From the NCBI GenBank assembly GCA_037443085.1, contig JBBIPA010000002.1:79658-143657 (forward strand): a stretch of 64,000 bases of DNA, read 5' to 3'. This document shows positions 47,869 through 64,000 of the stretch, in pieces. The translations under genes were made by a program, and so were the position numbers. Position 1 is the stretch's first letter. Each line of letters starts with the position of its first letter. The notes beneath the pieces were generated by a model. That model searched no databases and was not told the DNA's origin. It saw only the letters and a program-made list of their open reading frames with translations. Origin of the DNA: Chloroflexota bacterium (GTDB lineage Bacteria; Chloroflexota; Dehalococcoidia; GIF9; UBA5629).

Positions 47869-47898
47869 TTTGACAAAAGCCTAATATAAAGGCTAATA
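47869..47898 (+). promoter_or_regulatory. candidate sigma70 promoter of the 13-gene operon (TTGACA, 18 nt, TAATAT); direct repeat CTAATATA x2 in spacer
   Basis: -35 at 47869-47874, -10 at 47893-47898, about 75 nt before ATG 47975 (RBS GGAGAA). Confidence 0.35.
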
Positions 47899-47974
47899 TA
47901 TGTCGGTTTTCGTGGTCTCTGTATTTCAATAATACGCCTTACGTACTAACCCATACCAGAACCCGGAGAATTGT

Positions 47975-49294
47975 ATGGATTGGAAAACGCAACATAAAGA
48001 AAAACTCACCACCGCAGAAGAAGCCATTAACATCATCAAGTCGGGAGACTATGTTGCTTTTGCCTATGGGGTCGAACCTTTCGCCCTGGGGCTGGCGGTG
48101 CTTAACAGAGGCATAGAACTGGGTGGTCTGAAGGTATTGGTGCCAGCGCCGGGAAGAGATTTCGGCTGGTATGACCCCGGTATGGAGAGTCTCTTTCAGG
48201 TAGAAGTGGCTCACGTGCTTCCCGTAATGCAGCAAACAATGGCGGAGCGAAGGTGCGACTTCGTGGTCGGCTCCTTATCCTGGTCACATGAGCCTGGTGT
48301 CCGCAGGCGACCGGACGTGCTGATAACTCAGCTTTCGCCTCCCGATGAGCATGGCTATTGCAGCATGGGCGCCTCGCTGTGGAACAAGAAGAAAGCCATC
48401 ATGGACGCTAAGGTAGTGCTGGCTGAAATCAACGAAAGCCTGGTCAGAACCTACGGAGATAACTTTATCCATATCTCCGAAATCGACTACTGCGTGGAGC
48501 ATATTCCCAGTGGTCGAGTGCCCGGTGCTACTGATATGCTGGGGCGTAAGACTACCGAGCCGGGCGAGAGAGAAAAAAATATTAAGAAGTATGTCGCTTC
48601 TTTAATCCAAGATGGCGATTGTTTGGAGATCGGCGTTGGCGGCGTTGCCGAATGGCTATTTAAGCTGGATGCCTTCGAAGGCAAGAATGACCTGGGGATT
48701 CACTCGGAGAATCTGCCGCCAGGGATTGTTGATTTGGTCCGACGGGGCATTATCACCGGCCAGAGAAAGCAAATCCATAAAGGTAAGGTAGTATCCACTG
48801 CCTGCGGTGGCAGCAGTAAAGAGGACATGGATTTCATCAATATGAACCCTACCTTTGAACTCTATAGTTCAGACTATGTCCTCGACCCCAGAGTGATCTC
48901 AACGAATGACGATGTAGTGGCAATTAACAGTGCCCTCTCCATAGACCTGACCGGCCAGATTGCTGCGGAATCCATAGGCTCCCGCATGGTCAGCAGCACC
49001 GGAGGGCAACTGGCTTTTGCCATTGGCGCTAACCTATCCAAAGGCGGGCGCAATGTCACCTTGCTCACCTCCACTGCCAGCGGAGATACTATCTCACGCG
49101 TGGTACCCTCGCTCACGCCGGGCACAATCATTACTGTCCCTCGGACTCTTGCTGACATAGTGGTTACGGAGTACGGCATAGCTTATCTCAAGGGCAGGAC
49201 GCAGCGGGAGCGAGCGGAGGCGCTCATTGCCGTTGCCCACCCCAAATTCAGGGACGGATTGAAGGAACAAGCGCAGAATCTGTTTTATCCTTAA
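47975..49294 (+). CDS. acetyl-CoA hydrolase/transferase-family CoA-transferase (4-hydroxybutyrate/succinyl-CoA:acetate type)
   Basis: 439 aa; paralog at 59927-61183 (shared ...ITAHPKFR... C-terminus). Confidence 0.8.
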   Translation: MDWKTQHKEKLTTAEEAINIIKSGDYVAFAYGVEPFALGLAVLNRGIELGGLKVLVPAPGRDFGWYDPGMESLFQVEVAHVLPVMQQTMAERRCDFVVGSLSWSHEPGVRRRPDVLITQLSPPDEHGYCSMGASLWNKKKAIMDAKVVLAEINESLVRTYGDNFIHISEIDYCVEHIPSGRVPGATDMLGRKTTEPGEREKNIKKYVASLIQDGDCLEIGVGGVAEWLFKLDAFEGKNDLGIHSENLPPGIVDLVRRGIITGQRKQIHKGKVVSTACGGSSKEDMDFINMNPTFELYSSDYVLDPRVISTNDDVVAINSALSIDLTGQIAAESIGSRMVSSTGGQLAFAIGANLSKGGRNVTLLTSTASGDTISRVVPSLTPGTIITVPRTLADIVVTEYGIAYLKGRTQRERAEALIAVAHPKFRDGLKEQAQNLFYP

Positions 49295-49323
49295 GCTAAT
49301 ATTATCAGGAGGCTATAAACTAT

Positions 49324-49500
49324 ATGAAATGTCCATTCTGCCAGGAAGAGGTCGATAATTTTATCGAAAAGACCAAAGGCAATGTCACTGAATGTCGTTG
49401 CCCTCGCTGCAGCAGCGTGACAGCAGCTTATCAGAAAGGGATGGAGGAGAAACTGAAGAATCTGGTATCACTGGAAAGGTTTGAAAGGAGTGCCAAATGA
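49324..49500 (+). CDS. small zinc-ribbon protein (58 aa, CPFC...CPRC), translationally coupled to next gene
   Basis: not in ORF track (<60 aa); ATG 49324 after AGGAGG; stop TGA overlaps ATG 49497 (ATGA). Confidence 0.5.
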   Translation: MKCPFCQEEVDNFIEKTKGNVTECRCPRCSSVTAAYQKGMEEKLKNLVSLERFERSAK

Positions 49501-50669
49501 CACGGGAAACCACCGCTCAAATCTCGGAAGGACATATCACCAGCGAAGCTCTTGAGGAGTGGGAGAAGCGCATCGGAGTGAAGCTTCGTATTGGTAACAT
49601 CTTTAATCAGTATGTCTCCAAAGAAGCAATTAGGAACTATGCCTGGGGCGTAGGAGACCCCAATCCACTATGGCTGGATGAAGAATATGCCAAGAAGACC
49701 CGGTATAAAAGGCTGGTAGCTCCGCCTAACTGGCTCTATAGTGTTTTCCCAACCTGGGTTCTCCAGGGCTTGCCCGGGGTTCATGCCTTTCATTCAGGAA
49801 ATGATTGGACATTCCTCAAGCCGGTGTTTATGGGTGATACCATTACACCGGAGGCCATTTTCACCGGCTTCGACGTCAAGGCCAGCAAATTTGCTGGCAA
49901 AATGGTCAGAGAATACCAGAGAGCAAACTTCTACAATCAGAGGGGTGAGTTAGTTGCCTATACCGACCTGTGGCTGGTCCGTGCCGAGAGGGCTGCTGCC
50001 AGAAGCACTGGCAAATATTCAACCCTGAAACTCCCCCATCCCTGGACAGAAGAAGAGCTGAAAAATGTTGACCAGGAAGTGCTCAACGAGCAAATTCGCG
50101 GCAGCAATCCCAGATACTGGGAGGACGTCAATGTGGGAGATGAATTGCCACCGGTAATCAAAGGTGTTTTTGGCTTAACAGACATGATCGCCTATACGCT
50201 GGGTGCCGCCCCGGTGCAGGTAATGGCACATAGAGTATCACTGGAGCTTTATAGCAAACATCCCGCCTGGGCACTGCGCGACCCCAATACCTATGCCTGG
50301 GAACCAGTCTATGCCGTCCACTATAACAAATCAGTGGCCAATGCCGTTGGTTTACCTTATCCCTATAATGCTGGCGCTCAAAGCCAGAGCTGGTTAATCA
50401 ACCTGCTCACCAATTGGATGGGCGATGATGGCTGGCTGAAGAAAAATTACGCTCAGTACAATCACTTTGTCTACCTCTCCGATGCCGTCTGGTTCAGGGG
50501 CAAAGTTGTCAGAAAATATATCGATGACGAGGGCGAATACTGCGTCGATATTAAAACCAGTGCCATAAACCAGAGAGGCGAGGATACAGTGCCCGGCTTT
50601 GCCACCATTGCACTGCCATCGCGCGACAAAAAGGTCTGGCCAGTGGATAGAAGGATGCCTAAGAAGTAA
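49497..50669 (+). CDS. MaoC-like double-hotdog (R)-hydratase/dehydratase
   Basis: 390 aa with two hotdog-fold halves. Confidence 0.65.
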   Translation: MTRETTAQISEGHITSEALEEWEKRIGVKLRIGNIFNQYVSKEAIRNYAWGVGDPNPLWLDEEYAKKTRYKRLVAPPNWLYSVFPTWVLQGLPGVHAFHSGNDWTFLKPVFMGDTITPEAIFTGFDVKASKFAGKMVREYQRANFYNQRGELVAYTDLWLVRAERAAARSTGKYSTLKLPHPWTEEELKNVDQEVLNEQIRGSNPRYWEDVNVGDELPPVIKGVFGLTDMIAYTLGAAPVQVMAHRVSLELYSKHPAWALRDPNTYAWEPVYAVHYNKSVANAVGLPYPYNAGAQSQSWLINLLTNWMGDDGWLKKNYAQYNHFVYLSDAVWFRGKVVRKYIDDEGEYCVDIKTSAINQRGEDTVPGFATIALPSRDKKVWPVDRRMPKK

Positions 50670-50719
50670 GAATTGCAGCAGGGCGCTAAATCATTAAATA
50701 AATTAAAGGAGGAGGCATA

Positions 50720-51733
50720 ATGACAGCAGAGCGTGTCGTCAAGGATGATTACTTCAAGTTTGACGTCGAGGCGCATTTATGGCCGGATACCAGTGATATA
50801 AAATTTTATCCTGGCTTCCAATGGGAAGAGCCGGCATTCCAGGGCGTCACCCGTATTTTAGGCATTTCCAAGGTGTGGGAAACTAAGACCAAACACGGTG
50901 ATGTGGAGTTTCCCAAGTCCAATGACCCCGAGGTACTCATTGAACGGATGAACAAGTACGGAGTGGATATGGCATGCATTGTTCCCGAATCAGGCTGGGG
51001 GAAAACCCATACGCGAGCCATTTCCACCAATGGTTACATTTTGCAGGCCTACGAGAAATTTCCTGACAGGTTCGTCTTTACTGCCAATGTCGGCCCGATA
51101 ACTGTCAGGGGCATCGACCATGCTATGTGGGAAGCCGAGTTCCTGGTTAAAGAGAAAAACTGCAAAATGATAAAAATGTATACCCCTGAGGATACCTATA
51201 TCGATGACAGGCAACTATGGCCCTTTTACCAGAAAATTTCCGACCTGGGCGTGCCAATTGCCGTTCACCTGGGCTGGTGCTGGGTGCCGCCTAACTTATC
51301 CAAATATTGCCTCACCGAACAACTGGATGAGGTAGCTACTGCTTTCCCCAAGTTGAACTTTATTGCTTACCACGCTGGTTGGCCCCGTTTTCATGAGTTG
51401 AACATGATTGCGGCTGTCCATCCCAATGTGTACATCAGCCTGAGCGTATTGCTGGCATGGTGCATCACCGCGCCGAGGAGAATAGCCGAGATTATCGGTG
51501 AAGCCATTCAGTTTGCTACTGCCGACAAGGTTATGTTTGGCACTGACTACTGCAATTCCGAGATTATGATAAAGTATGCCGTGGAAGGCTTCCGCAACTT
51601 CCAGATTCCCAAGGATATGCAGGAAGGCTATGGATTTGAACCAATTACCGAGGAGGATAGGCGTAAAATTTTTGGTCTTAACCTGGCTAAATTGATGGGC
51701 ATTGATCCCAGAAGGAGGGTACCGAAGATATAG
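50720..51733 (+). CDS. amidohydrolase-2 family metal-dependent hydrolase/decarboxylase (ACMSD/LigW/LigJ-like)
   Basis: 337 aa TIM-barrel metallo-enzyme pattern with His/Asp ligand positions. Confidence 0.7.
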   Translation: MTAERVVKDDYFKFDVEAHLWPDTSDIKFYPGFQWEEPAFQGVTRILGISKVWETKTKHGDVEFPKSNDPEVLIERMNKYGVDMACIVPESGWGKTHTRAISTNGYILQAYEKFPDRFVFTANVGPITVRGIDHAMWEAEFLVKEKNCKMIKMYTPEDTYIDDRQLWPFYQKISDLGVPIAVHLGWCWVPPNLSKYCLTEQLDEVATAFPKLNFIAYHAGWPRFHELNMIAAVHPNVYISLSVLLAWCITAPRRIAEIIGEAIQFATADKVMFGTDYCNSEIMIKYAVEGFRNFQIPKDMQEGYGFEPITEEDRRKIFGLNLAKLMGIDPRRRVPKI

Positions 51734-51780
51734 TCTTGGACAAGGTAAATTGCTATTTGTTAGTTTAGAGGAGGCAGGAA

Positions 51781-53007
51781 ATGGCTTACGAAAGTTTATT
51801 TAAACCCATAAAGATAAAGGATGTGGAAATACCGAACCGGCTGGGCATGGCCCCCATGAATATCAATTTCACCAGAGAAGGCCATATCAGTGAACAGCAC
51901 ATGGCTTATTTCGGTGCCAGAGCCAAAGGTGGAACAGGTCTGATCATGACCGAGGCGGTCAGAACCAGTGAAGAGGGTACCAACCGGACATTTTATGATA
52001 ATCCCCATATGTGGAAACCAGCACATCAGAAAGGCTTGGCGGAGCTATGTGAAACGGTGCATTATTTTGGTGCCAAAATATTTGCCCAGATGAATATTGG
52101 CCCAGGACCCCAGGGCTCTTCCAAGAAGATGGGCTTGCAGCCCAGGGCAGCATCTGCCAGGCCATTCAACGTAGCTAAGGAAATGGTGCCCAAACAAATG
52201 CTGCCATGGATAGAACGCGGCCAGGTATATATTAGTTTCCAGGGCGAAATGCCGCGTGAGATGACCAAAGATGAAATTAAAAAGGAAACTGAACAGTTTG
52301 CCAAATCAGCCAGCATGGCATTTGTAGCCGGGGTTGACGGCGTCGAGATTCATGCCGCACATGGCTATCTCCTTCATAGCTTTCTGTCACCCCTGTTTAA
52401 CCTCCGTAAAGATGAGTACGGCGGCAGCCTGGAAAACCGTATGAGATTCTTGATGGAGGTGGTCAAAGCAGCCAGAGAGCTATGTGGCTCCAAGGCAATT
52501 ATCGGCGTCCGCGCTAGCTCAGATGAACATATGCCTGGAGGCACTACACTGGAGGACATGAAATTTGTAGTCAAGGAGCTGGAGAAAGCCGGTATGGACT
52601 TTTTCCATCTCTCCGGCGGTTCTTATGAAGCCATGAAATACCTCTTCCCCGATGAAGACGGTACTATGATGGCAGACGGCAAAGCGCTCAAGCAGACAGT
52701 GAAAATCCCTATCATTATCTCCAGCATTCATGACCCCGATATGGTAGATAAGGCGGTAAGAGAGGGGTATTGTGACATAATGGCTCATGGTCGCCCGCTT
52801 ATTGCTGACCCGGAATGGGCGAATAAGGTAAAAGAAGGTAGAGTGAAGGATATTAATAAGTGCACTAGAGACCTCATGTGCCTGGTCAGACTGTTCCAGG
52901 GGTTGCCTGGCAGGTGCACGGTAAATCCCAACTTTGGCAGAGAAAAATACATGCCTGAGTACTGGCGTGGTCCCACCAAGCCAATGCACTGGCGGCGTGT
53001 CGCTTAA
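51781..53007 (+). CDS. Old Yellow Enzyme-family NAD(P)H:flavin ene-reductase
   Basis: 408 aa; OYE TIM barrel (HAAHGYLLHSFLSPLFNLRKDEYGGSLENRMRF). Confidence 0.85.
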   Translation: MAYESLFKPIKIKDVEIPNRLGMAPMNINFTREGHISEQHMAYFGARAKGGTGLIMTEAVRTSEEGTNRTFYDNPHMWKPAHQKGLAELCETVHYFGAKIFAQMNIGPGPQGSSKKMGLQPRAASARPFNVAKEMVPKQMLPWIERGQVYISFQGEMPREMTKDEIKKETEQFAKSASMAFVAGVDGVEIHAAHGYLLHSFLSPLFNLRKDEYGGSLENRMRFLMEVVKAARELCGSKAIIGVRASSDEHMPGGTTLEDMKFVVKELEKAGMDFFHLSGGSYEAMKYLFPDEDGTMMADGKALKQTVKIPIIISSIHDPDMVDKAVREGYCDIMAHGRPLIADPEWANKVKEGRVKDINKCTRDLMCLVRLFQGLPGRCTVNPNFGREKYMPEYWRGPTKPMHWRRVA

Positions 53008-53026
53008 ACGGAAAACAAAAGCTATA

Positions 53027-53063
53027 ATGATAAACGGGCAATTTGCCCGTTTATCATTATAAG
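53027..53063. repeat. perfect 37-bp palindrome ATAATGATAAACGGGCAA-T-TTGCCCGTTTATCATTAT between OYE and mutase genes (terminator/attenuator or operator)
   Basis: 18-bp arms exact reverse complements around a single T. Confidence 0.55.
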
Positions 53064-53101
53064 ACTATGATTGGGAACCAGTTCTAAAGGCTGCAAGCGG
53101 T

Positions 53102-54775
53102 ATGAAAGACAATTTGCGAAAGCTCAAGGAAGCATGGGAGAGGGGACCTGCAGAGGAAGCTAAGAAGCAGCAGAAGGAACGCCAGGATAGATTCCAAACC
53201 GACTCCGGTAATGAAGTTAAAGCTCTTTATACTCCCCTTGACCTGGAAGAGAACGGTTTTGATTATGTAGACGCCCTCGGTTTTCCCGGCAGATTCCCTT
53301 TCACCAGAGGTCGTGATACTCTCGGCTACCGGCAGAAATTCTGGCAGTTCGGTCAATACGCAGCCTACGGAAATGCTGAGGAGACCAATAAAAGATATCG
53401 TTTTCTTTTGGAACATGGTGGCACCAATATTAGTGTAGCGCTGGACATGCCCACCCAGATGGGCTATGATTCCGACAACCCCTTAGCTGAAGGCGAGGTG
53501 GGCAAAGTGGGAGTTTCCGTTGATTCCCTGGAAGATATGGAAACTCTGTTCCAGGGTATTCCCCTCAACAAGCTGAGCCAGATAAGCACCACTGCTAACT
53601 CTATTGCTCCTATCTGGATAGCCATGATTCTGGTGCTCGCTGAAAAACAGGGGGTATCTCCCAAAAGCTTTGTTATCAGACTTCAGAACGATATTTTGAA
53701 GGAATATGTTGCCAGGGGCACCTATATCTTTCCTCCCCAGCCATCGGTTAATATGGCTACCGACGTTATCGCTTATTGCGTAAAAAACCATCCGCACTGG
53801 TTTCCTATGAGTGTTTCCGGCTACCATATTCGGGAAGCTGGCGCCAGCGCCGCACAGGAGATCGCCTTTACCATCGCCAATGCTATTGCCTACAGCGATG
53901 ATTGTGTGGCAAAAAGGATAAAAGCAGAGGACTATCTTTCTAAGCTGGCGGTGTTTTTCAACTGCGGCATGGATTTCTTCGAGGAAATTGCCAAGTTCCG
54001 AGCCATGCGCCGCCTCTGGGCACGAACGCTCAACAAGCGATACAGCATCTCCGACCCCAATGTACTAAACTATTTTATGAGCTGCATGACCGCTGGCAGC
54101 AGTCTGACTGCCCAGCAGCCGATGAATAACACCGTCCGCGTCGCTATTGAATCGCTGGCAGCCGTTTTAGGTGGGGTTCAGGTGCTGTATCCCTGCTCAA
54201 TGGATGAAGCCTATTGTACCCCTACTGAAAAGGCAGTGAAGGTGGCACTGAGAACCCAGCAGATTATCGCCCATGAGTCCGGGGTAACCAGAACAATCGA
54301 CCCGATGGCAGGCTCATATTTCGTAGAGCACCTCACTTCGGAACTGGAAAGGAAGGCTCAGGAATATCTGGACAGGATAGAGAAAATGGGTGGGGCGGTT
54401 CGAGCTGTGGAACTCGGCTATTATCAGGATGAAATTGCCAAGTCCTCTTACCGGATCAAGCAGGATATCGAGAAAAATGAACGCATCATCGTCGGAGTGA
54501 ATCAATACATAGATGAGGAAGAGTTGCCCATAGAGATTTTGAAGGTCGACCCTGCTCTGGAAGAGAAGCAGAAACAAAAGTTGAAAAAGCTACGAAGTTC
54601 TCGAGATAATACAGGCGTCAAGAATGCTCTTAAAAAAGTGAAGCAGGCTGCCGAAAACAATGAGACACTGATTCCTTCGATTATCGATGCAGTAAGAGTT
54701 TATGCTACACTTGGTGAGATGTGTGACATCCTCAGAGGCGTATATGGCGAATATACCGCCCGTAGCGGTTTCTAA
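53102..54775 (+). CDS. methylmalonyl-CoA mutase-type acyl-CoA mutase, large catalytic subunit (split form)
   Basis: 557 aa; FPFTRG motif; Tyr (GQYAAYG) and Arg (VARGTYIFPP) at positions aligning with MCM Tyr89/Arg207. Confidence 0.85.
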   Translation: MKDNLRKLKEAWERGPAEEAKKQQKERQDRFQTDSGNEVKALYTPLDLEENGFDYVDALGFPGRFPFTRGRDTLGYRQKFWQFGQYAAYGNAEETNKRYRFLLEHGGTNISVALDMPTQMGYDSDNPLAEGEVGKVGVSVDSLEDMETLFQGIPLNKLSQISTTANSIAPIWIAMILVLAEKQGVSPKSFVIRLQNDILKEYVARGTYIFPPQPSVNMATDVIAYCVKNHPHWFPMSVSGYHIREAGASAAQEIAFTIANAIAYSDDCVAKRIKAEDYLSKLAVFFNCGMDFFEEIAKFRAMRRLWARTLNKRYSISDPNVLNYFMSCMTAGSSLTAQQPMNNTVRVAIESLAAVLGGVQVLYPCSMDEAYCTPTEKAVKVALRTQQIIAHESGVTRTIDPMAGSYFVEHLTSELERKAQEYLDRIEKMGGAVRAVELGYYQDEIAKSSYRIKQDIEKNERIIVGVNQYIDEEELPIEILKVDPALEEKQKQKLKKLRSSRDNTGVKNALKKVKQAAENNETLIPSIIDAVRVYATLGEMCDILRGVYGEYTARSGF

Positions 54776-54793
54776 CATAATTGCGGAAAGAAA

Positions 54794-55195
54794 ATGGCGA
54801 AGAAGATCAGAGTCTTGGTAGCCAAGCCGGGACTGGATGGGCATGACCGTGGTGCCAAAGTAGTGGCACGTTCGCTTGCCGATGCCGGCATGGAGGTTAT
54901 TTATACCGGCATCAGGCAGACTCCAGAGCAGATTGCCAATACGGCAATACAGGAGGATGTGGACGTTGTTGGTTTGAGCATTCTTTCTGGTGCTCATAAT
55001 ACACTATTCCCCAGAGTGGTAGACTTATTAAAGAAGAAGGGGCGAGAGGATATCGCTGTAATTGGTGGTGGCATTATTCCCCCCGATGATGCCAGAAAAC
55101 TAAAAGAGCATGGCATCGCCGAGGTCTTTGGTCCGGGAACCGACACACGGCGAATAGTAGATTTTATTAAGAAAACGGTTATCAGAGGCAGCTAG
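54794..55195 (+). CDS. acyl-CoA mutase small subunit, cobalamin-binding domain
   Basis: 133 aa; DxHxxG motif ([10 protein letters not shown]), Rossmann B12-binding fold. Confidence 0.85.
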
Positions 55196-55239
55196 AATAT
55201 AGTATTTATCCAAAATATATCAGCTAACGAAGGGAAACA

Positions 55240-55653
55240 ATGTTCCAAAAGATTGACCATATTGGCATAGCGGTCTCAGACTTGAATAAAGCGGTAGAAG
55301 AGTACCAGCAGAAGTTTAGTATAGCTACAAAATACATAGAGGAGCTGGCAGACATCTCCGTGCGAATCGCCTTTATGCCAGTGGGAGAAGTGATGCTGGA
55401 ATTGATTGAGCCGCTCACGCCGGGTGAGGGGCGCGTTGCTGAATTTCTGAAAAAGCACGGTGAGGGGCTTCATCATATAGCCTACAGGGTTGACGACCTG
55501 GAAGCCGTGTTAGCCAAAATGAAGAAAGAAGGTGTTAAGCTAATAGATGAAAAGCCCAGACCCGGTGGTGGCGATTCCTGGATTGCTTTCTTAAGTCCCC
55601 AAGAAACCAATAATGTGCTGACAGAGCTGGTGCAGAGGGAAAGAGAACTGTAA
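55240..55653 (+). CDS. methylmalonyl-CoA epimerase (VOC/glyoxalase family)
   Basis: 137 aa; IDHIGIAV...HHIAY metal-ligand pattern; directly after mutase subunits. Confidence 0.75.
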   Translation: MFQKIDHIGIAVSDLNKAVEEYQQKFSIATKYIEELADISVRIAFMPVGEVMLELIEPLTPGEGRVAEFLKKHGEGLHHIAYRVDDLEAVLAKMKKEGVKLIDEKPRPGGGDSWIAFLSPQETNNVLTELVQREREL

Positions 55654-55672
55654 AGCAGAAAGGAAAAAGCCT

Positions 55673-57259
55673 ATGAACATCCGAGAGCTGCTGGAAAGCC
55701 GTGCCAAATCGACTCCACAAAAGGTCTACCTCTATTTCCAGGACAAGAAGATAACCTATGGCGATTTCAACCAGCAGGTAAACAGGGCGGCAAATAGCTT
55801 CCTGCGCCTGGGGATTAAAAAGGGAGACAATTTCGCCATTATGGCCCCCAATTCTCCTGAATTCCTTTATGCCTGGTTTGGCTTGAACAAAATAGGCGCT
55901 GTGGAAGTGCCGGTAAATCTCAACCTGAAAGGTCCGGAACTGGCGTATATCTTCAATCATTCTGAGGCAAAGGGAGTTGTGATACACTCCAACTATATTG
56001 CTACCTTCGAGGAAATTCTGGCGCATCTTCCTGGGGTGAAACACATAATAGTGGTGGGAGGTGAAACGCCAGCGCCCAGAGGGGCAACTCTCTACAAGGA
56101 CTGGGTAGCAGGAGCATCTGGAGAACTCCAGCAGGTCACTATAGCAGACGATGACCCGGCGGTTATCATTTACACTTCAGGAACCACCGGTAATCCCAAA
56201 GGTGTTCTCCTATCTCATCGTGGTTGGGTGCTCACTGGAGAATCCTGGGCATATATGATTGGGGCTAAATCAGATGACCGCATCATGACCTCTAACCCTC
56301 TATTCCATGCCAATGCTCAATGCTACTCTACCATGGGCAGCCTGGCGGCAAATGCCAGCTTAATTCTCCTAGAGCAATTCAGCCGGTCTCGTATTCTAGA
56401 GCAGTCACGACACTACGGTTCAACAATTGTTGTCTTGGTTGGACCAGCCATGCCGATGGTCTGGAGTCGACCGGTTCAGACTGACGATGGCGATAACCCC
56501 ATAAGGACAATTATGGCTGGAGGGGTGCCTGCGGAATATTACTATGACTTTGAAAAGCGGTTTCAGGTGAAGATTCACACGGCATATACGCTAACCGAGG
56601 CAACCTATGCTATCATGTCGCCACGGGAAGGCACCCAGCCCAGAAAACCCACTCCCGGCGTGGGCTTTGCCATGGAGCATCCTGACCCTTCTATCCGTAA
56701 TGAAATCAGGATTATTGATGATAATGATGCTGATGTGACACGAGGTTCGCAGGGGCAGTTTATTGTGAAAAACCCGGCAGTGATGCTTGGTTACTTTAAG
56801 GATGCCGAAAAAACTGCCGAGGCCAAGCGTAATGGCTGGATTTATACCGGTGATATCGGCTATCAGGACGCGGACGGTTACTATTTCTTTGTGGGGCGGA
56901 GCAAGGATGTGCTCCGCAGGAGAGGAGAGCTTATCTCGCCAGCTCAAATAGAAGGAGTCATTAATACGCATCCAGAAGTGGCTGATTCTGCAGTCATCGG
57001 TGTTCCCTCGGGACTGGGCACCGCCGAGGAAGAGGTCAAAGCCTATGTGATTCTAAAACCCGGCGAATCGGTGACGCCGCAGGAAATAGTTGCCTGGTGC
57101 CAGAAGAGCCTGGCTGATTTCAAGGTGCCCCGCTACATTGAGTTTCGCACCGAGTTTCCCAGAACGCCTCTGGGGAAAATACAAAAGAATGTTTTCAAGA
57201 CCGAGAAGAAAGACCTCACTGAAGGCTGTTACGACCGCGAGAAAGACATTAAGAAGTAG
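55673..57259 (+). CDS. AMP-forming acyl-CoA synthetase/ligase
   Basis: 528 aa; IYTSGTTGNPKGV AMP-binding motif, YTGD hinge, C-terminal catalytic Lys. Confidence 0.85.
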   Translation: MNIRELLESRAKSTPQKVYLYFQDKKITYGDFNQQVNRAANSFLRLGIKKGDNFAIMAPNSPEFLYAWFGLNKIGAVEVPVNLNLKGPELAYIFNHSEAKGVVIHSNYIATFEEILAHLPGVKHIIVVGGETPAPRGATLYKDWVAGASGELQQVTIADDDPAVIIYTSGTTGNPKGVLLSHRGWVLTGESWAYMIGAKSDDRIMTSNPLFHANAQCYSTMGSLAANASLILLEQFSRSRILEQSRHYGSTIVVLVGPAMPMVWSRPVQTDDGDNPIRTIMAGGVPAEYYYDFEKRFQVKIHTAYTLTEATYAIMSPREGTQPRKPTPGVGFAMEHPDPSIRNEIRIIDDNDADVTRGSQGQFIVKNPAVMLGYFKDAEKTAEAKRNGWIYTGDIGYQDADGYYFFVGRSKDVLRRRGELISPAQIEGVINTHPEVADSAVIGVPSGLGTAEEEVKAYVILKPGESVTPQEIVAWCQKSLADFKVPRYIEFRTEFPRTPLGKIQKNVFKTEKKDLTEGCYDREKDIKK

Positions 57260-57294
57260 CTATACAATTCACTCTGGCGAATTAGGGAGATAAC

Positions 57295-58704: not shown

Positions 58705-58713
58705 GGAGACTCT

Positions 58714-59907
58714 ATGGCAGAAGGAATCAAAGATAAAGTCGCTGTAATCGGCATGGGTTGCGTGAAATTTGGCGAGAACTGGGAACAAAGCGCTGCCGAT
58801 ATGATCATTGAGGCTGCCTACGAAGCCTATGAGGATGCCGGTGTAGATTCTAAAGATATTAAAGCTGCCTGGGTAGGAACCACTCAGGCTGGGGTCCGCG
58901 GCAATCAACTGGCAGTCCCGCTAAAATTAGAGTATATACCCATAACCAGGGTAGAAAACGCGTGCGCTACCGGAACCGATGCCTTTCGCAATGCCTGCTA
59001 TTCTGTGGCCGCCGGGGTATATGACATGGCTCTGGCTGTAGGCGTAGAAAAGATTAAAGATACCGGCTACAGTGGCCTGGAAACATCCTTTGCCCGCCAT
59101 AAGGCGCAGGATACCTGGGTCGACCCCGAAGCCTTTATGGGTATGCCGGCTCAATTCGCCATGGCAGCCACCCGGTATTTCTACCGTTATAAATTGGGTT
59201 ATGATGAAGGCAAGCGAATACTGGCTAAAATCTCGGTCAAGAGCCATCACAATGGAACTCTCTCACCTAAAGCCCATCTCCACCGCGAGATCACCGTGGA
59301 ACAGGCGGTGAATGCCCCCATGATTGCCTGGCCTCTGGGGCTATTTGACTGCTGCGGCGTCAGCGACGGCGCTGCGGCGGCCATAGTGACCACTCCTGAG
59401 ATAGCCAGGAAATACCGTGATGACTATATTCTGGTAAAAGGTCTGGGCTTCTCCTGCGGTGCTGACCAGGCACAATTGCAGGATGACTATGACTTCACCC
59501 ATTTCGAAGAAACGGTAACCGCTGCCAAGCTGGCATATCAGGAAGCCGGCGTGAAGCAACCTCGCAAAGAAATCAGCCTTGCCTCCGTCCATGACTGTTT
59601 CAGTATCACCGAGCTGATAACCTATGAAGACCTCGGCTTCAGCCCTGCCGGCAAGGGAAAAGAAGATGTGGACGCTGACACCTTCACCTTGCAAGGAGCA
59701 TTACCCGTGAATACTGACGGTGGACTCAAGTGTTTCGGACATCCCGTGGGCGCCAGCGGCATACGCATGATTTACGAAATCTACAAGCAGCTTCAGGGCA
59801 AGGCTGGACCACGTCAACTGAAAGACCCCAAGCTGGGCTTAACCCATAATCTGGGCGGTTTGCCCGGTCGATTTGTTTGCTCGGTGGCTATATTCGGTCG
59901 GAAATAG
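58714..59907 (+). CDS. thiolase (SCP2/archaeal type, the kind that partners DUF35 proteins)
   Basis: 397 aa; N-terminal VAVIGMGCVKFGE; catalytic Cys in ENACATGTDAF; C-terminal GHPVGASG. Confidence 0.85.
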   Translation: MAEGIKDKVAVIGMGCVKFGENWEQSAADMIIEAAYEAYEDAGVDSKDIKAAWVGTTQAGVRGNQLAVPLKLEYIPITRVENACATGTDAFRNACYSVAAGVYDMALAVGVEKIKDTGYSGLETSFARHKAQDTWVDPEAFMGMPAQFAMAATRYFYRYKLGYDEGKRILAKISVKSHHNGTLSPKAHLHREITVEQAVNAPMIAWPLGLFDCCGVSDGAAAAIVTTPEIARKYRDDYILVKGLGFSCGADQAQLQDDYDFTHFEETVTAAKLAYQEAGVKQPRKEISLASVHDCFSITELITYEDLGFSPAGKGKEDVDADTFTLQGALPVNTDGGLKCFGHPVGASGIRMIYEIYKQLQGKAGPRQLKDPKLGLTHNLGGLPGRFVCSVAIFGRK

Positions 59908-59926
59908 GCCGCTCTGACTGACTTCC

Positions 59927-61183
59927 ATGTCCAAATTTGTCAGCGCTCAACAGGCTATACAAGCTATAGAGCCGGGAGGGACCGTCTTCCTGGGCGAGTC
60001 CTGCGGTGAACCCCAGACGCTGGTAGAAGCATTAGTTGAAGACAGAGAGCGGCTGAGAGGCACCCGTATCCTCGACTCCAGGCGCATCAATGGTTCCAAG
60101 CTGATTCCCTTCTGCTATTACTTCAAGGTTATTAGCTTCCAGTTCGCTGCTGATATTGCCCGGGCAGCCGAGAAAGGTCTGATTGACCACCTGCCGCTAA
60201 AGCTTTCCGAAATGCACCGACTGTTCTCACCAAAGGGTCCTGTTCAGGTTGACGTTGCCCTGGTGCAGGTTTCTCCTCCCGACAGCGAAGGCTACTGCAG
60301 CTTTGGAGTCTGCGTGGGATACACCTTGGAAGCAGCGCTGAGCGCTAGGATGATCATCGCTGAGGTAAATCAGCAGATGCCCAGAACCTATGGCGGTAAT
60401 GCACTGCCCATAGAGAAGTTCGACTATGTCGTTCGCTCCTCCCGACCGCTGCTGGAATATCCTGTGCCCAAAGTCGAGGATGTGCATATGGAAGTGGCTA
60501 AAAATGCGGCGCGGCTTATCGGCGATGGAGCTACCCTCTGCCTCGGCCTTGGTTCAGTACCGGAAGCGATATTAAAGTGCTTACAGGGGAAGCGCGATTT
60601 AGGGCTGCATTCAGGGTTGATAACCGATGGCATTATCCAGCCTATCAAGGATGGCATCATCACCAACAAAAAGAAGAGCCGGGATAGAGGAAAAACAATC
60701 TCGGCGCAGGCAATGGGCAGCAGAGAGCTGTTCCAGTTTCTGCATGAAAATCCACAGGTAGAAATGCGACCCTATTCTTATACGCATGATATCAACATAC
60801 TGGCAAAAACGAACAACTTTACCCTGATTAATTCAGCAATCGAGGTTGACCTCACCGGACAGCTCAATGTCGAGTCTATCGGTGATGTCCAGTTTGGCGC
60901 CGTGGGTGGACAGGCTGACTATATCCGGGGAACCGCCTTATCCCAGGGCGGCAAGAGCATAACCGCCCTCACCTCTACCACTAAGAACGGCAAAACCTCC
61001 AGAATCGTGCCCCAGTTCAGCGCCGGCACCGTGGTTAGCATCCCGCGCTACGATGTCCAGTACGTGGTCACTGAATATGGCATTGCCGAGCTATGGGGCA
61101 AAACGCTCGCCGAAAGACGTGAAGCCCTCATCACCATCGCCCACCCCAAATTCCGCGGCGAACTCTATCCCCCTGCCAGTTAA
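59927..61183 (+). CDS. second acetyl-CoA hydrolase/transferase-family CoA-transferase
   Basis: 418 aa paralog of 47975-49294. Confidence 0.8.
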   Translation: MSKFVSAQQAIQAIEPGGTVFLGESCGEPQTLVEALVEDRERLRGTRILDSRRINGSKLIPFCYYFKVISFQFAADIARAAEKGLIDHLPLKLSEMHRLFSPKGPVQVDVALVQVSPPDSEGYCSFGVCVGYTLEAALSARMIIAEVNQQMPRTYGGNALPIEKFDYVVRSSRPLLEYPVPKVEDVHMEVAKNAARLIGDGATLCLGLGSVPEAILKCLQGKRDLGLHSGLITDGIIQPIKDGIITNKKKSRDRGKTISAQAMGSRELFQFLHENPQVEMRPYSYTHDINILAKTNNFTLINSAIEVDLTGQLNVESIGDVQFGAVGGQADYIRGTALSQGGKSITALTSTTKNGKTSRIVPQFSAGTVVSIPRYDVQYVVTEYGIAELWGKTLAERREALITIAHPKFRGELYPPAS

Positions 61184-61516
61184 AAGAGCAGCCCGTTGCC
61201 GATTGAGCTACAGGGATTCGTACCCATCAGAGATACGCCTATACTGTCACCATAGCCCTGATGAATAGCGACCTTGCCCTGAAGCAACATTCCGATGTAT
61301 TGTTATTCTTGGGTACTGGCTATCGAGACTGTTAATAGCCCGGCCTCGGTTGAGGGTAATTTGTTGAACCTTTGTTTTGGAGCTGCGGTTGTCTGTCTAG
61401 TGAATAATAACTTGGAACGTTGACCAATTGTCTAACTACCCGGTCGAGATGCTACCAGGAAACTATTGGCATGGGGAACGAACCTGGTTTAGGAAGAATG
61501 GCTGGAGGTATGGCAT

Positions 61517-62176
61517 ATGAGAAAGCTTTTCAAAATTGAGGGGATTCCCAGACCCGGCGCCATAGTCTATTCGGCAGTCGTGGCCAAGAGCCCTGTCATG
61601 CAGGACTTCTACCACATAGTGGCGGAAGAAGTGCTATCAAAGATATCTTCTGGCAGAATACTGGATATAGGAACAGGTCCAGGGTATCTTCCGCTCGAGA
61701 TTGGTCAGAAATCCAAAGACATCGAGATTAAGGCTATCGATATTTCACCTGCCATGGTAGAGATAGCCAGGCGGAATGCCCGGGAAATAGGGTTACAAGA
61801 GCGTGTGGAGTTCCTCTTCGGCAGTGCTGATAACATGCCATTTACCGAGGGATACTTTGATTTAATCGTGAGCACCGGCAGTTTCCATCATTGGGCGGAG
61901 CCTGAAGCGTGTCTTAAGGAAATATATCGGGTACTCAAGAATGGCGGCGAAGCCTGGATTTACGACCTGAGGCGAGATATCTCGAAAGAGGCGAGGCTGG
62001 AGGCGAGAAGGAGGTATGGCTGGCTATTATCTTCTCTGTTCTTGTATGTTGTCAGACTCCATTCCTCAATAGGCGCAAAGGAGGTACAGGAACTCCTTTC
62101 CTCTCCAGAGCTATATTTCTCTTCAAAGAGGGTGGAAGATAGAGGAGTTATCCTCAAACAAGCACTGCAGAAATGA
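61517..62176 (+). CDS. class I SAM-dependent methyltransferase (UbiE/COQ5-like)
   Basis: 219 aa; ILDIGTGPGYL SAM motif I. Confidence 0.8.
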   Translation: MRKLFKIEGIPRPGAIVYSAVVAKSPVMQDFYHIVAEEVLSKISSGRILDIGTGPGYLPLEIGQKSKDIEIKAIDISPAMVEIARRNAREIGLQERVEFLFGSADNMPFTEGYFDLIVSTGSFHHWAEPEACLKEIYRVLKNGGEAWIYDLRRDISKEARLEARRRYGWLLSSLFLYVVRLHSSIGAKEVQELLSSPELYFSSKRVEDRGVILKQALQK

Positions 62177-62184
62177 AATATCAG

Positions 62185-62994
62185 CTACGATAATGGTATA
62201 TCGCCTAAGTTCACGTCCTTTTCAGTGTTGATTGAATCTATGGCCTTGGTTTTGCCGCCCTTCTCTATCTTCAAGGAAAAGGTGCCTGTCTTCAATCCTT
62301 CAAACCAGAAGTCTCCGAAGCCATCTGTGGTGGTAGTCAGCTTTTCTCCGCTCTTGGCATTTGTCAAAGTGCATGTTGCGCCGATGACAACATCCTCCTC
62401 AACGGGATAATAAACCGTACCAGCCACAAATTTCTTGGGAATGTTCAAATAATATACCTTTGGCTGGGCGTTAAGCTCGGGATGCAGTACCTCGGCTTTG
62501 CTTATCAGGGTGCGCAGTTCGAACTCTTCGCCGAATTTTATCGCTTCGTGGGGGCAGGCATCGGCGCATCTGGGCTCCTGCCATCCCTTATCGAGTAGAT
62601 GAGCACAGCCGGTGCACTTTTGAGCCAGGTTGAGGTCCTCGTTGAAGTAGATGACGCCGTAGGGGCAGGCGTCCACGCAGAGCTTGCAGCCGGTACACTT
62701 GGCCGGGTCGATGATAACCAGTCCGTCGTCTCTGCGGTATATAGCACCCTTGGCAGGACATGCCGGGATACAGGGAGCATTGGCGCAATGCATACATATC
62801 CTGGGGACATAGTGCATCTTGACCTTGGGCACGGTTCCCCTGACAAACTCATTAATCTTCAGCCAGAACTGCCCGGTATCGGGTTGAGGCTTGGCATAGG
62901 GTGCCCAGTCATTGCCCACATGCTCGTCCTTGCAGGCAATCTGGCAGTTGTAGCATCCGTTACATTTGGAAACATCGATAACAAAGGCTTTCAT
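62185..62994 (-). CDS. FeS (beta) subunit of a DMSO-reductase-family molybdoenzyme: four ferredoxin-type Cys motifs plus C-terminal beta-sandwich domain
   Basis: 269 aa; CNGCYNCQIAC, CMHCANAPCIPACP, CTGCKLCVDACP, CTGCAHLL...CADACP; about 100 aa extra C-terminal domain. Confidence 0.85.
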   Translation of the reverse strand: MKAFVIDVSKCNGCYNCQIACKDEHVGNDWAPYAKPQPDTGQFWLKINEFVRGTVPKVKMHYVPRICMHCANAPCIPACPAKGAIYRRDDGLVIIDPAKCTGCKLCVDACPYGVIYFNEDLNLAQKCTGCAHLLDKGWQEPRCADACPHEAIKFGEEFELRTLISKAEVLHPELNAQPKVYYLNIPKKFVAGTVYYPVEEDVVIGATCTLTNAKSGEKLTTTTDGFGDFWFEGLKTGTFSLKIEKGGKTKAIDSINTEKDVNLGDIPLS

Positions 62995-64000
62995 TTATTC
63001 CATCCCTCCTTCGACCCAGGCGTTGAAGCGTAATCCAGAAGCCGGGTCATACTCTCTTTCGAATGCTGCAGGGTGTTGCTGCCGCCACTCTTCCATCTGA
63101 GCCATGCTGACCCTCTCCACCTCGACCAGGTAGCCACTGGTAGCCATGCCGCCACAATGCTTGGAGGTTATTCCTTTGGGAGATATTAGGTTAATGGCTC
63201 CGCCGCGGTCGAGCTTTCCCGGCATGATATAGTCGACCCGTGCTCCGTGGTCCATGGACAAAACGCCGGGCATTATCCTTTCCCACACCAATGCGCCGCC
63301 AAGAACCGCTCCTCTTTCGTTATATATCTTCACGATGTCGCCATTCTTTATGCCTCTCCTGGCGGCATCTGAGGGATGCATCCACAGAGGCTCGTACATG
63401 TATCCATCAGGCCCTTTCACCTTGCAGGTTGGGGCTTCCCTTGACCATGATATGTCATCACATTGAGCATGAACACGCCACCTGCCGTGATTGGAGATAA
63501 TGAGCAGTGGATACTTCTTAGCTCTTTCACTGGAGAGCCTTTCATCGTGCGTTTCGCTTTTTTCAATCCACTTCGGCACTGGCGGTCTTTCCTTGTCATC
63601 GGGGAAGTGCTTGGCCAGCCTCTCGGAGTAGAACTCTATCTTGCCGCTGGGTGTTTGCAGTGGATTCTTTTCAGGGTCTTTATAGAATGCTATCAGACCG
63701 GCCGGGTCATTTTCCCAGTCAGTTCTCTGCGGAATCACGTAGTATCCTTTTTCGTTAAGCTCTTCCCAGCTAATCAGGTCGGCCACTCTGGACTTCTCAT
63801 AGCCGAGTTTTATCCATTCCTCAACAGTCTTGCCTTCGGTCATCTCATCATACATATCCAGCTTCTTGGCTACTTCGCAGACAATGTCATAGTCGCTCTT
63901 GGACTCCCCCAGGGGTTCAATGCATTTGCGTTCCGGGAAGAGTAATGAATATTGCATGCTGCCAGTGTCTCCACCGATATCCTCTTCTTCGAATTTAGTA
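62995..64000 (-). CDS. molybdopterin (Mo-bisPGD) oxidoreductase catalytic alpha subunit, C-terminal part only (gene continues beyond window end)
   Basis: frame open to 64000; C-terminal molybdopterin dinucleotide-binding barrel pattern; stop abuts beta subunit start. Confidence 0.8.
   Translation of the reverse strand, partial: TKFEEEDIGGDTGSMQYSLLFPERKCIEPLGESKSDYDIVCEVAKKLDMYDEMTEGKTVEEWIKLGYEKSRVADLISWEELNEKGYYVIPQRTDWENDPAGLIAFYKDPEKNPLQTPSGKIEFYSERLAKHFPDDKERPPVPKWIEKSETHDERLSSERAKKYPLLIISNHGRWRVHAQCDDISWSREAPTCKVKGPDGYMYEPLWMHPSDAARRGIKNGDIVKIYNERGAVLGGALVWERIMPGVLSMDHGARVDYIMPGKLDRGGAINLISPKGITSKHCGGMATSGYLVEVERVSMAQMEEWRQQHPAAFEREYDPASGLRFNAWVEGGME

Follow-up and report, generated by a model that had tools for sequence, protein, structure and literature searches.

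A soluble AthL/BthL-clade molybdoenzyme tail-to-tail with a mosaic of CoA-dependent modules in an uncultured Dehalococcoidia bacterium: a possible shared catabolic route

When the genes of a molybdoenzyme meet those of coenzyme A (CoA)-dependent metabolism tail to tail, it is unclear whether the two serve one pathway or merely lie side by side. This question is raised by a 64,000-nucleotide (nt) stretch of DNA, hereafter the window, from a Chloroflexota bacterium (NCBI GenBank assembly GCA_037443085.1, contig JBBIPA010000002.1, positions 79,658 to 143,657 of the forward strand). Open reading frame (ORF) listing and translation place thirteen plus-strand genes at 47975-62176, facing the beta and alpha genes of a molybdoenzyme that extend from 62185 to the window end (Table 1). 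An original prediction, made from the DNA alone, had described this locus as a catabolic supra-operon converging on a two-subunit enzyme of the dimethyl sulfoxide (DMSO) reductase family. The thirteen ORFs of the plus strand and the two of the minus strand are all present where that prediction had put them, and their Pfam families agree with its gene list. Our own reading is that a soluble enzyme of the AthL/BthL clade faces, tail to tail, a mosaic of CoA-dependent modules and that both function in one catabolic route, to which we assign a probability of roughly 45%, i.e. slightly below even odds.

The molybdoenzyme can be assigned to a family from its two subunits. The beta subunit has about 270 residues and a ferredoxin-like iron-sulfur (FeS) domain, as is characteristic of the AthL/BthL clade. 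It aligns end to end with BthL, the pyrogallol-phloroglucinol transhydroxylase small subunit (PDB 4v4c_B; residues 4-267, 4.3e-58, 199.9 bits) and scores lower on PsrB-type proteins (121 bits) and EbdB (91.3 bits), while its C-terminal beta-sandwich, a feature already predicted, is recognized by Pfam as CarboxypepD_reg at residues 190-253. The alpha gene is cut by the window, its ORF running to base 64000 without a stop, and the remaining 334 residues score equally on DMSO reductase (127.8 bits) and AthL (127.6 bits); therefore, this fragment alone does not decide the family. Its homologues are ORFs with PF21423 (AhtL-like_1st) ahead and BthL-like genes after them, the domain being seen on three contigs (L001, L002, and L054) as well as in the alpha subunit of a metagenome contig, L051, that closely resembles the window (82.5% DNA identity over the beta/alpha genes; protein identity of 85% for beta and of 91% for alpha, the latter over the 334 residues shared with the window). 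The family traits of alpha were read from this contig. Its full-length alpha subunit (851 residues) scores 449.6 bits on AthL vs 276 bits on DMSO reductase, begins with the AhtL-like domain, contains neither the CxxCxxxC motif of an FS0 cluster nor a twin-arginine (Tat) signal, and retains His144 and Asp174-Ser175 (NPDSWEGW) at positions that fall, with the catalytic part of the window's own alpha, beyond the window. Judged through this 91%-identical relative, the window enzyme is a member of the AthL/BthL (PgtL/RhL) clade of pyrogallol transhydroxylase and resorcinol hydroxylase, which has been described as cytoplasmic and Ser-liganded (PMC10100899). This bears out the expectation of an alpha/beta enzyme that is of the transhydroxylase/hydroxylase type and has no anchor.

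Two other enzyme types can be weighed against the same evidence. A respiratory or detoxifying S-/N-oxide reductase of the DMSO/trimethylamine-N-oxide (TMAO) type would be compatible with the equal scores of the alpha fragment, with the name 'trimethylamine-N-oxide reductase' found among JGI homologues, and with a four-cluster beta subunit that could deliver electrons, but it is very improbable given that the L051 alpha is nearer to AthL, has an AhtL-like first domain, and is devoid of a Tat signal, that DorA and TorA do not come with a beta subunit of the BthL type, that no anchor or cytochrome gene is found nearby, and that no NCBIfam reductase model reaches its cut-off. The original prediction had pointed beyond the window for a possible respiratory anchor, and there, upstream of the L051 alpha, we found only a 125-residue FS0-domain fragment and trpEGDC, with no anchor or cytochrome gene. 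This fragment (L051 4311-4688, minus strand), probably what is left of a gene, comprises nothing but the FS0 (Molybdop_Fe4S4) N-terminus of another molybdoenzyme. At the opposite end of the pair, the stop codons of the beta and methyltransferase genes are 8 nt apart, which leaves no room for an anchor gene, as had been claimed, and the start of beta follows directly upon the alpha stop.

Enzymes of the EbdABC/C25DH type combine an Asp-liganded alpha subunit bearing FS0 and a Tat signal with a beta subunit of ~350 residues and a haem b gamma subunit. Since the window beta scores only 91 bits on EbdB vs 199.9 bits on BthL, since alpha belongs to a Ser-ligand, FS0-less clade, and since there is no gamma gene at the window beta/methyltransferase junction or beside the L051 alpha, we consider it extremely improbable that the enzyme hydroxylates an alkyl-aromatic, isoprenoid, or steroid side chain without oxygen in the manner of EBDH/C25DH, with ChsH/Ltp2-like hydration and aldolase cleavage then releasing propionyl-CoA, even though the MaoC hydratase, DUF35, thiolase fold, and methylmalonyl-CoA genes of the block do recall steroid side-chain logic. 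Matches to ChsH1/ChsH2 are likewise marginal (E about 3e-3), scores on the EbdA and EbdB models stay well short of the cut-offs, and no NCBIfam model reaches its cut-off for alpha or beta. Taken together, the traits of the L051 alpha and the BthL-like beta rule out both the respiratory reductase and the side-chain hydroxylase in our view, and the alkyl-aromatic and steroid substrates that had been listed as candidates are excluded with the latter. A scan of viral contigs for the beta subunit gave no matches.

It should be noted that the AthL-like alpha genes and many of their neighbors are split into two to three overlapping or frame-shifted ORFs on four contigs (L001, L002, L054, and L055), all from the long-read metagenome assemblies ERZ25039515 and ERZ25039461. 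Selenocysteine or another form of recoding was considered and rejected, as the pieces overlap or shift frame and the neighboring genes are fragmented too. The splits are likely due to assembly indels, which also explains the many 'alpha' matches of 300-575 residues in the protein search. One further contig (L052), from a high-GC organism and with a match of only 61 residues, was set aside.

Within its clade, the window enzyme differs from the crystallized one in its predicted FeS content. When the Cys columns are aligned with BthL, all 16 Cys of four ferredoxin motifs are present in the window beta, and the same is true of the beta subunits of L051, L001, and one of those of L002, whereas BthL and the L054 beta are devoid of exactly the four Cys of one cluster. 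As all 16 Cys are retained, four FeS clusters are predicted for the window beta, rather than the three of crystallized BthL, and we infer that this four-cluster subclade consists of electron-transferring hydroxylases or dehydroxylases, not redox-neutral transhydroxylases. The active site appears to diverge as well. The paper of 2004 on the transhydroxylase structure reportedly names His144, Arg153, and Tyr404 as substrate-pocket residues. Of these, the L051 alpha retains the first but has Pro instead of Arg153, and its Tyr404 segment is not alignable, with 24 residues vs 46 in AthL.

These differences, including the 16 Cys vs 12 in BthL, speak against a true pyrogallol-phloroglucinol transhydroxylase that feeds a new phloroglucinol pathway, in which the old yellow enzyme (OYE) homologue of the block would be the reductase, its amidohydrolase (AH2) the ring-opening hydrolase, and its CoA-transferase, hydratase, and thiolase would take 3-hydroxy-5-oxohexanoate to acetyl-CoA, as in Pelobacter acidigallici. 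The known anaerobic phloroglucinol pathway employs an SDR-type PGR, a cyclase-family DPGC, the TfD dehydrogenase, and the BKACE-type lyase TAL (PMC10470551), and none of these families is found by Pfam among the ORFs of 47.9-64 kb. Furthermore, the block has no 3-hydroxyacyl-CoA dehydrogenase, and its mutase and epimerase would have no role in a pathway that converts a C6 compound to three acetates. Such a transhydroxylase would agree with a beta subunit collinear with BthL, with the retention of His144, Asp174, and Ser175 in the L051 alpha, with the CoA-transferase and thiolase steps of the classical P. acidigallici scheme (summarised in PMC10470551), and with the resemblance of the thiolase complex to the archaeal acetoacetyl-CoA thiolase. 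On balance, we regard it as quite unlikely.

Among the plus-strand genes, the two CoA-transferases, the zinc-ribbon peptide, and the hydratase also occur in other contigs. The original prediction of two CoA-transferases stands insofar as both are family I proteins by Pfam, but CoAT2 is without the catalytic Glu of this family. In a motif alignment, canonical CoA-transferases have H[TS]EM and GGQxDF and the CoAT1 clade has HSEN and GGQLAF, such that CoAT1 keeps the Glu next to a variant second motif, whereas the CoAT2 clade (window and L037-L041) has HSG[LM], with Gly in place of the catalytic Glu, and retains GGQADF/Y/W. From its spacing to the GVG loop, we take the HSG[LM]/H[TS]EM column to be that of E238 of 4-HB-CoAT. 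The catalytic role of this Glu (E238 of 4-HB-CoAT, E249 of RipA) has been described (PMC3180442; see also PMC11659651), and a Glu-less family I enzyme, ThnP, transfers CoA intramolecularly on a dicarboxylyl-CoA in the course of anaerobic naphthalene breakdown (PMC11659651). By analogy, CoAT2 may likewise shift CoA from one carboxyl group to another. CoAT1 is below every NCBIfam cut-off and has orthologues of 72-80% identity on three contigs (L032, L038, and L056).

Downstream of CoAT1 lies the 58-residue zinc-ribbon ORF. In all eight of the other loci (L030, L032, L034, L035, L036, L038, L056, and L057), an ORF of 48-65 residues that shares its KCPxC...RCPxC...AAY pattern immediately precedes the hydratase, and, as judged from this conservation, the window ORF is a real gene. 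Relatives of the hydratase, MaoC2, are 64-88% identical among the matches listed, with Chloroflexota, Desulfobacterales, Tectomicrobia, and Eubacteriales among the named sources. Wherever the flanking sequence suffices, a CoA-activating enzyme (ligase or transferase) is found near MaoC2, and the other partners vary. In another Chloroflexota contig (L056, 3787-6462), the CoAT1/zinc-ribbon/MaoC2 triad lies between rplA (L1) and rplJ (L10) within the rplKAJL cluster, and a variant of the triad occupies the same rplA/rplJ place in L030/L031 (7150-11173), likewise from Chloroflexota, where genes for an Fe-dependent alcohol dehydrogenase (Fe-ADH) and an aldehyde dehydrogenase are located between rplK and rplA. 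This odd position of a catabolic triad in a ribosomal cluster hints at a constitutive role.

The triad is followed by the genes of AH2 and OYE. AH2 belongs to a rare amidohydrolase-2 subfamily with only 29 representatives at E<=1e-30 among 1.84 billion entries, which conserves the metal ligands Glu17-x-His19, His183, and Asp276. An AlphaFold model built from 55 sequences reached a predicted local distance difference test (pLDDT) score of 92.4, superseding a single-sequence model that was unusable (pLDDT 45). After one uncharacterized protein, its nearest solved folds are the 2,6- and 2,3-dihydroxybenzoate decarboxylases, LigJ, LigY, and LigW, i.e. the nearest characterized folds are all those of enzymes acting on aromatic-derived acids, which supports a link to the molybdoenzyme. 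The gamma-resorcylate decarboxylase has the same ligand pattern (Glu8, His10, His164, and Asp287; PMC8187880). The adjacent OYE-family protein has only partial NCBIfam matches and ends just past what remains of the FadH/BaiCD-type FeS motif, namely three Cys in the pattern C-x5-C-x11-C-TVNP, without an FAD/NAD(P) domain. AH2 and OYE also follow the triad in two 87%-identical contigs, L032 and L033.

The claim of a thiolase with a DUF35 partner requires some modification, as both are present, but the partner is a 469-residue fusion of an HMG-CoA synthase (HMGCS)-like domain to DUF35, of which both the zinc ribbon (zf-ChsH2) and the OB fold (OB_ChsH2_C) can be recognized. The N-terminal domain scores almost identically on archaeal HMGCS (112.9 bits) and PhlA (112.6 bits). 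Catalysis by archaeal HMGCS depends upon Glu82 and Cys114 (PMC6392133), and in an alignment with that enzyme the fusion has Thr and Leu at the respective positions. Based upon these residues, the HMGCS-like domain is predicted to be catalytically dead, and HMG-CoA synthesis is not expected. A real HMG-CoA synthase of the mevalonate pathway was thus rejected for want of the catalytic Glu and Cys. The thiolase scores 208 bits on the archaeal acetoacetyl-CoA thiolase (6esq_A), 160 on BbsB, 89.6 on PhlC, and 87.7 on Ltp2, and its Cys84 aligns with the 'aacasg' motif of the archaeal enzyme. A PhlACB-type acylphloroglucinol transferase was rejected since the thiolase is archaeal-thiolase-like and not PhlC-like. 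The retained Cys nucleophile and the score on Ltp2 (87.7 bits vs 208 on a true thiolase) are further points against the steroid-type aldolase cleavage discussed above. In a genome scan with the fusion, it was paired with the thiolase in 22 of 27 loci, and no other part of the cluster was kept beside the pair. Fusion and thiolase genes also occur in two or three tandem copies (L003, 5-7561; L006, 5073-12595), suggesting a family of paralogues that differ in acyl-CoA specificity.

Tyr and Arg at the positions of MutB Y89 and R207 are conserved in the mutase, whereas HcmA has Ile and Gln there. We take these two residues to be the carboxylate-binding signature of methylmalonyl-CoA mutase. On this criterion, 2-hydroxyisobutyryl-CoA mutase, although the best PDB match, was rejected. 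Together with the DxHxxG motif of the small subunit and an epimerase above its curated cut-off, these residues identify, at the sequence level, a genuine methylmalonyl-CoA mutase with its epimerase, in agreement with the original prediction. Methylmalonyl-CoA mutases are commonly, though not invariably, accompanied by a MeaB/ArgK chaperone, and none was found among the window ORFs scanned (>=125 residues in 46-64 kb, >=180 residues elsewhere). The succinyl-CoA synthetase genes sucCD are located 12 kb upstream of the cluster (window 33999-36041, minus strand), and could supply or consume the succinyl-CoA of the mutase.

Whether these genes form one transcription unit is a separate matter from their enzymology. 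Most gaps between neighboring plus-strand genes are indeed small (-4 to 50 nt), as implied by their description as tightly spaced, but there are two exceptions, namely a 94-nt gap between OYE and the mutase and a 333-nt gap ahead of the methyltransferase. A single sigma70-like promoter had also been proposed. The TTGACA-18-TAATAT site at 47870 is the top-scoring promoter-like match of the region, but such sites are not enriched there (21 found vs 18.9 +/- 3.5 expected from shuffles), and a single promoter for the block is therefore not demonstrated. The 94-nt gap contains a hairpin with a 19-bp stem, which overlaps a weak promoter-like site (53043-53071) and has no U-tract on the coding strand. 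L032 has the order CoAT1, zinc-ribbon gene, MaoC2, AH2, OYE, hairpin, and mutase start, and its hairpin (about 7765-7800) has the same place and core, with a compensatory T:A to C:G change. Conserved in both contigs, the hairpin probably divides two transcription or stability units, and it may be a terminator, a processing site, or an operator. At the far end, the methyltransferase is absent from the otherwise syntenic L051 and is probably not part of the system. Since thiolase pairing was the only association conserved across the 27 loci of the fusion scan, the thirteen genes are not one conserved operon. Judging from gene neighborhoods, the plus-strand block is a mosaic of separately conserved modules, and the notion of one coherent supra-operon does not hold, given that the modules occur separately elsewhere and that a conserved hairpin splits the block.

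The association of the molybdoenzyme with the transferase/hydratase core, as originally predicted, does recur in other contigs. In L051, CoAT2 converges on the beta and alpha genes with the methyltransferase missing. In L038, two nitroreductase-family genes, an AthL-like alpha gene (853 residues), CoAT1 (74%), the zinc-ribbon gene, MaoC2 (82%), and CoAT2 (67%) all lie on one strand, with the alpha gene co-directional and 135 nt upstream of the core, and a second FeS/Mo pair converges on CoAT2. From these, about two independent observations, we consider the molybdoenzyme to be probably linked to the CoAT2-containing core, although this is weakly established.

Several findings weigh against a shared route. 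L051 is of the same lineage as the window, which reduces the independent co-localizations to about two. The CoAT1/zinc-ribbon/MaoC2 triad occurs in L056, and its variant in L030/L031, with no molybdoenzyme nearby, and seven hydratase-anchored contexts are without an AthL-like gene (L030/L031, L032/L033, both short, L034, L035, L036, L056, and L057). Conversely, neither a transferase nor a hydratase was matched on the four contigs (L001, L002, L054, and L055) found by way of AthL-like proteins that share 70-76% identity with the window alpha. Overall, most relatives of either partner are without the other. The thiolase pair has a wide distribution across gene neighborhoods of no relation to this one, the fold matches of AH2 are remote (template modelling (TM) score about 0.6, 14-18% identity), and the N-terminus of the window alpha lies outside the window. 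Furthermore, such genomes carry numerous AthL paralogues, of which L002 has three sets inside 12 kb, and this abundance raises the chance of fortuitous adjacency. Such an adjacency, in which genes of general short-chain acyl-CoA and succinate/propionate metabolism happen to lie beside an AthL/BthL paralogue with an unrelated substrate, is a possibility to be taken seriously, albeit one we judge unlikely. It would explain why the modules occur independently, even in a ribosomal-protein cluster, and why AthL-like loci elsewhere stand beside ETF, TctAB, IclR, or hydantoinase genes. The molybdoenzyme genes are convergent with the plus-strand block and hence not co-transcribed with it, a succinyl-CoA synthetase is encoded 12 kb upstream, and the archaeal KT/DUF35/MaoC complex serves generic fatty-acid chemistry (bioRxiv 10.1101/2024.07.05.601840). 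Chance alone would fit less well with the retention of CoAT2 beside the molybdoenzyme in L051 despite the loss of the methyltransferase, with the co-directional alpha gene just ahead of the same core in L038, or with the fact that the closest characterized folds of AH2 all come from aromatic catabolism.

If molybdoenzyme and modules do function in one catabolic route, its steps could be as follows. The Mo-bis(pyranopterin guanine dinucleotide) (Mo-bisPGD) alpha subunit would hydroxylate, dehydroxylate, or trans-hydroxylate a phenolic or enolic compound in the cytoplasm, with its electrons passing through the four FeS clusters to a soluble partner. AH2, as a metal-dependent decarboxylase, hydratase, or C-C hydrolase, and OYE would then act on an aromatic acid or a ring-derived enone, and CoAT1 would activate the resulting (di)carboxylic acid. 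MaoC2 with its zinc-ribbon partner would add or remove water on the CoA ester, CoAT2 may shift CoA to the second carboxyl group, and the thiolase complex would cleave a 3-oxoacyl-CoA, with products toward acetyl-CoA. The mutase and epimerase, identified as such from their sequences, would interconvert methylmalonyl-CoA and succinyl-CoA. Against this scheme, the block encodes no 3-hydroxyacyl-CoA dehydrogenase, propionyl-CoA carboxylase, or transcarboxylase, nor does it encode a recognized ring-cleaving enzyme or an electron-transfer partner. Thus, the proposed sequence of hydration, oxidation, thiolysis, and propionyl-CoA disposal is incomplete, with neither the dehydrogenase nor the carboxylase at hand. 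A more specific proposal is that the four-cluster AthL-like enzyme and the Glu-less CoAT2 clade define an undescribed oxygen-independent pathway of Dehalococcoidia, in which a soluble Mo (de)hydroxylase acts on a polyphenol-derived or dicarboxylic substrate, followed by a CoA-transferase, the zinc-ribbon/hydratase pair, an intramolecular CoA-transferase, and the methylmalonyl-CoA route. We regard this as a speculative and rather unlikely extension.

Table 1. Coordinates of the features of the plus-strand block and of the facing molybdoenzyme genes within the window
Feature	Position	Strand	Basis and remarks
Promoter-like site TTGACA-18 nt-TAATAT	47870..47899	+	10/12 matches; 241-nt gap after speE
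CoAT1, family I (Cat1/4-hydroxybutyrate type) CoA-transferase	47975..49294	+	Pfam AcetylCoA_hydro + AcetylCoA_hyd_C
58-aa zinc-ribbon peptide, KCPxC...RCPxC...AAY	49324..49500	+	Two CxxC pairs; stop overlaps hydratase start by 4 nt
MaoC2, 390-aa double-hotdog MaoC/FAS1-DH-type acyl-CoA (de)hydratase	49497..50669	+	Pfam FAS1_DH/MaoC
AH2, amidohydrolase-2 of rare subfamily	50720..51733	+	Pfam Amidohydro_2; ligands Glu17-x-His19, His183, Asp276
OYE-family flavin ene-reductase, FadH/BaiCD-like branch	51781..53007	+	Pfam Oxidored_FMN 227 bits
Perfect 19-bp-stem hairpin/palindrome between OYE and mutase	53022..53062	.	dG -26 kcal/mol
Methylmalonyl-CoA mutase large (substrate-binding) subunit, split type	53102..54775	+	Pfam MM_CoA_mutase 643 bits
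Mutase small B12-binding subunit	54794..55195	+	TIGR00640 188.8 bits vs cut-off 57; DxHxxG (DGHDRG at residue 15)
Methylmalonyl-CoA epimerase, glyoxalase fold	55240..55653	+	TIGR03081 123.3 bits vs curated cut-off 114.95
AMP-forming acyl-CoA ligase	55673..57259	+	Pfam AMP-binding
HMG-CoA-synthase-like (PhlA-like) domain fused to DUF35, 469 aa	57295..58704	+	Pfam ACP_syn_III_C + zf-ChsH2 + OB_ChsH2_C
SCP-x/archaeal-type thiolase, nucleophile Cys84 kept	58714..59907	+	NF004810 574 bits vs cut-off 403
CoAT2, family I CoA-transferase paralogue	59927..61183	+	Pfam AcetylCoA_hydro; HSG[LM], GGQADF/Y/W
Class I S-adenosylmethionine (SAM) methyltransferase	61517..62176	+	Pfam; 333-nt gap ahead; no NCBIfam cut-off reached
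BthL-like FeS beta subunit	62185..62994	-	Pfam Fer4_11 + C-terminal CarboxypepD_reg; four Cys motifs (16 Cys)
C-terminal 334 codons of AthL-like Mo-bisPGD alpha	62995..64000	-	Molydop_binding within 62995-63957; runs off window

Of the listed proteins, the acyl-CoA ligase reaches no NCBIfam cut-off, and NCBIfam offers no model by which the Mo subunits, AH2, or the zinc-ribbon peptide could be named. The rest of the window is housekeeping in character, with relA/spoT, lepA, a hemN-like gene, two pmbA/tldD genes, a Mur ligase, pyrF, a dinB-like gene, sucCD, serS, a lysS/asnS-type gene, speD, speE, and one tRNA-Ser. Base composition is even throughout, and the named relatives of LepA (75-80% identity) are all Dehalococcoidia or Chloroflexota, Dehalogenimonas being at 76%. 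The region is chromosomal DNA of an uncultured bacterium of the class Dehalococcoidia and not a mobile island. A few other genes of the window are unusual. A 382-residue protein (28676-29824, minus strand) scores above the reductive dehalogenase cut-off (TIGR02486, 226 bits vs 160), has no twin-arginine signal, and adjoins an MFS transporter gene (27385-28641); by sequence, it looks like a cytoplasmic RdhA-like protein. Two large proteins of unusual architecture (36378-38243 and 38930-40699, minus strand) end in AhpC/TSA redoxin domains, one of them with a zinc ribbon and the other with fibronectin-III and purple-acid-phosphatase-N domains. A 230-residue Cys-rich protein with a signal-peptide-like N-terminus (45575-46267, minus strand) has no Pfam or NCBIfam match, and an N-terminal double zinc ribbon is fused to a KaiC-type ATPase at 4439-5515 (plus strand).

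All of the components described here are from known families, and the presence of the AthL family in this phylum is itself already known, earlier reports having described AthL-like genes of Chloroflexi/Dehalococcoidia and interpreted them as pyrogallol hydroxytransferases (PMC3971608, PMC4959651). In the literature searched, we found no description of the four-cluster beta subclade, of its recurrence beside a transferase/zinc-ribbon/hydratase core with a Glu-less CoA-transferase clade, or of the fusion of a dead HMGCS domain to DUF35. Bacteria of the class Dehalococcoidia number among the most abundant in anoxic sediments. Their genomes contain many AthL-like enzymes, for which names such as pyrogallol transhydroxylase or DMSO/TMAO reductase are routine but untested. 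With a four-cluster beta, a divergent pocket, and no known phloroglucinol genes alongside, such annotations are arguably too specific, and the same features argue that at least one subclade would be a true redox enzyme. The Glu-less CoA-transferase, the zinc-ribbon/hydratase pair, and the decarboxylase-like amidohydrolase offer targets for biochemistry on the anoxic breakdown of aromatic or acidic carbon in buried form. Were the adjacency a matter of chance, the region would represent ordinary acyl-CoA metabolism.

Compared with known systems, the molybdoenzyme is most similar to AthL/BthL of Pelobacter acidigallici (PDB 4V4C), with which it shares the anchor-less alpha/beta composition and a ~270-residue beta subunit ending in a beta-sandwich, as well as, by way of the L051 alpha, the AhtL-like first domain, the lack of FS0 and Tat signal, Asp174-Ser175, and His144. 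It differs in the 16 Cys of its beta subunit vs the 12 that bind three [4Fe-4S] clusters in BthL, in the Arg153-to-Pro change and shorter Tyr404 region seen in L051, and in a genomic context devoid of the known phloroglucinol-pathway genes. Resorcinol hydroxylase RhLS of Azoarcus anaerobius (PMC10100899), compared by description, belongs to the same cytoplasmic Ser-liganded clade and is a true redox hydroxylase, a function that a complete FeS wire would suit, but the HHQ dehydrogenase and Bqdh complex of its context have no counterpart in the window. AH2 shares its TIM-barrel and Glu-x-His/His/Asp ligands with the ortho-hydroxybenzoate decarboxylases (gamma-resorcylate decarboxylase, 2,3-DHBD, and LigW) and with LigJ/LigY, yet it falls in a small separate subfamily that has no characterized member and conserves Lys152. 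CoAT2 resembles ThnP (PMC11659651), again by description, in combining a Cat1-type family I fold with the loss of the catalytic glutamate, and ThnP itself is part of an anaerobic catabolic cluster and acts on the CoA ester of a dicarboxylic acid. The thiolase and fusion reproduce the three folds of the thiolase/HMG-CoA synthase/DUF35 complex, the thiolase being closest to the archaeal enzyme, except that in the window the HMGCS-like and DUF35 parts are fused and Glu82/Cys114 are replaced by Thr/Leu; the HMGCS-like part resembles PhlA in being without the catalytic residues, and the thiolase is only distantly similar to PhlC (89.6 bits). Finally, the succinate-to-propionate sbm operon of E. coli (scpA-argK-scpB-scpC) similarly clusters a methylmalonyl-CoA mutase with a family I CoA-transferase, whereas the window has a split mutase and an epimerase and is without MeaB/ArgK and methylmalonyl-CoA decarboxylase.

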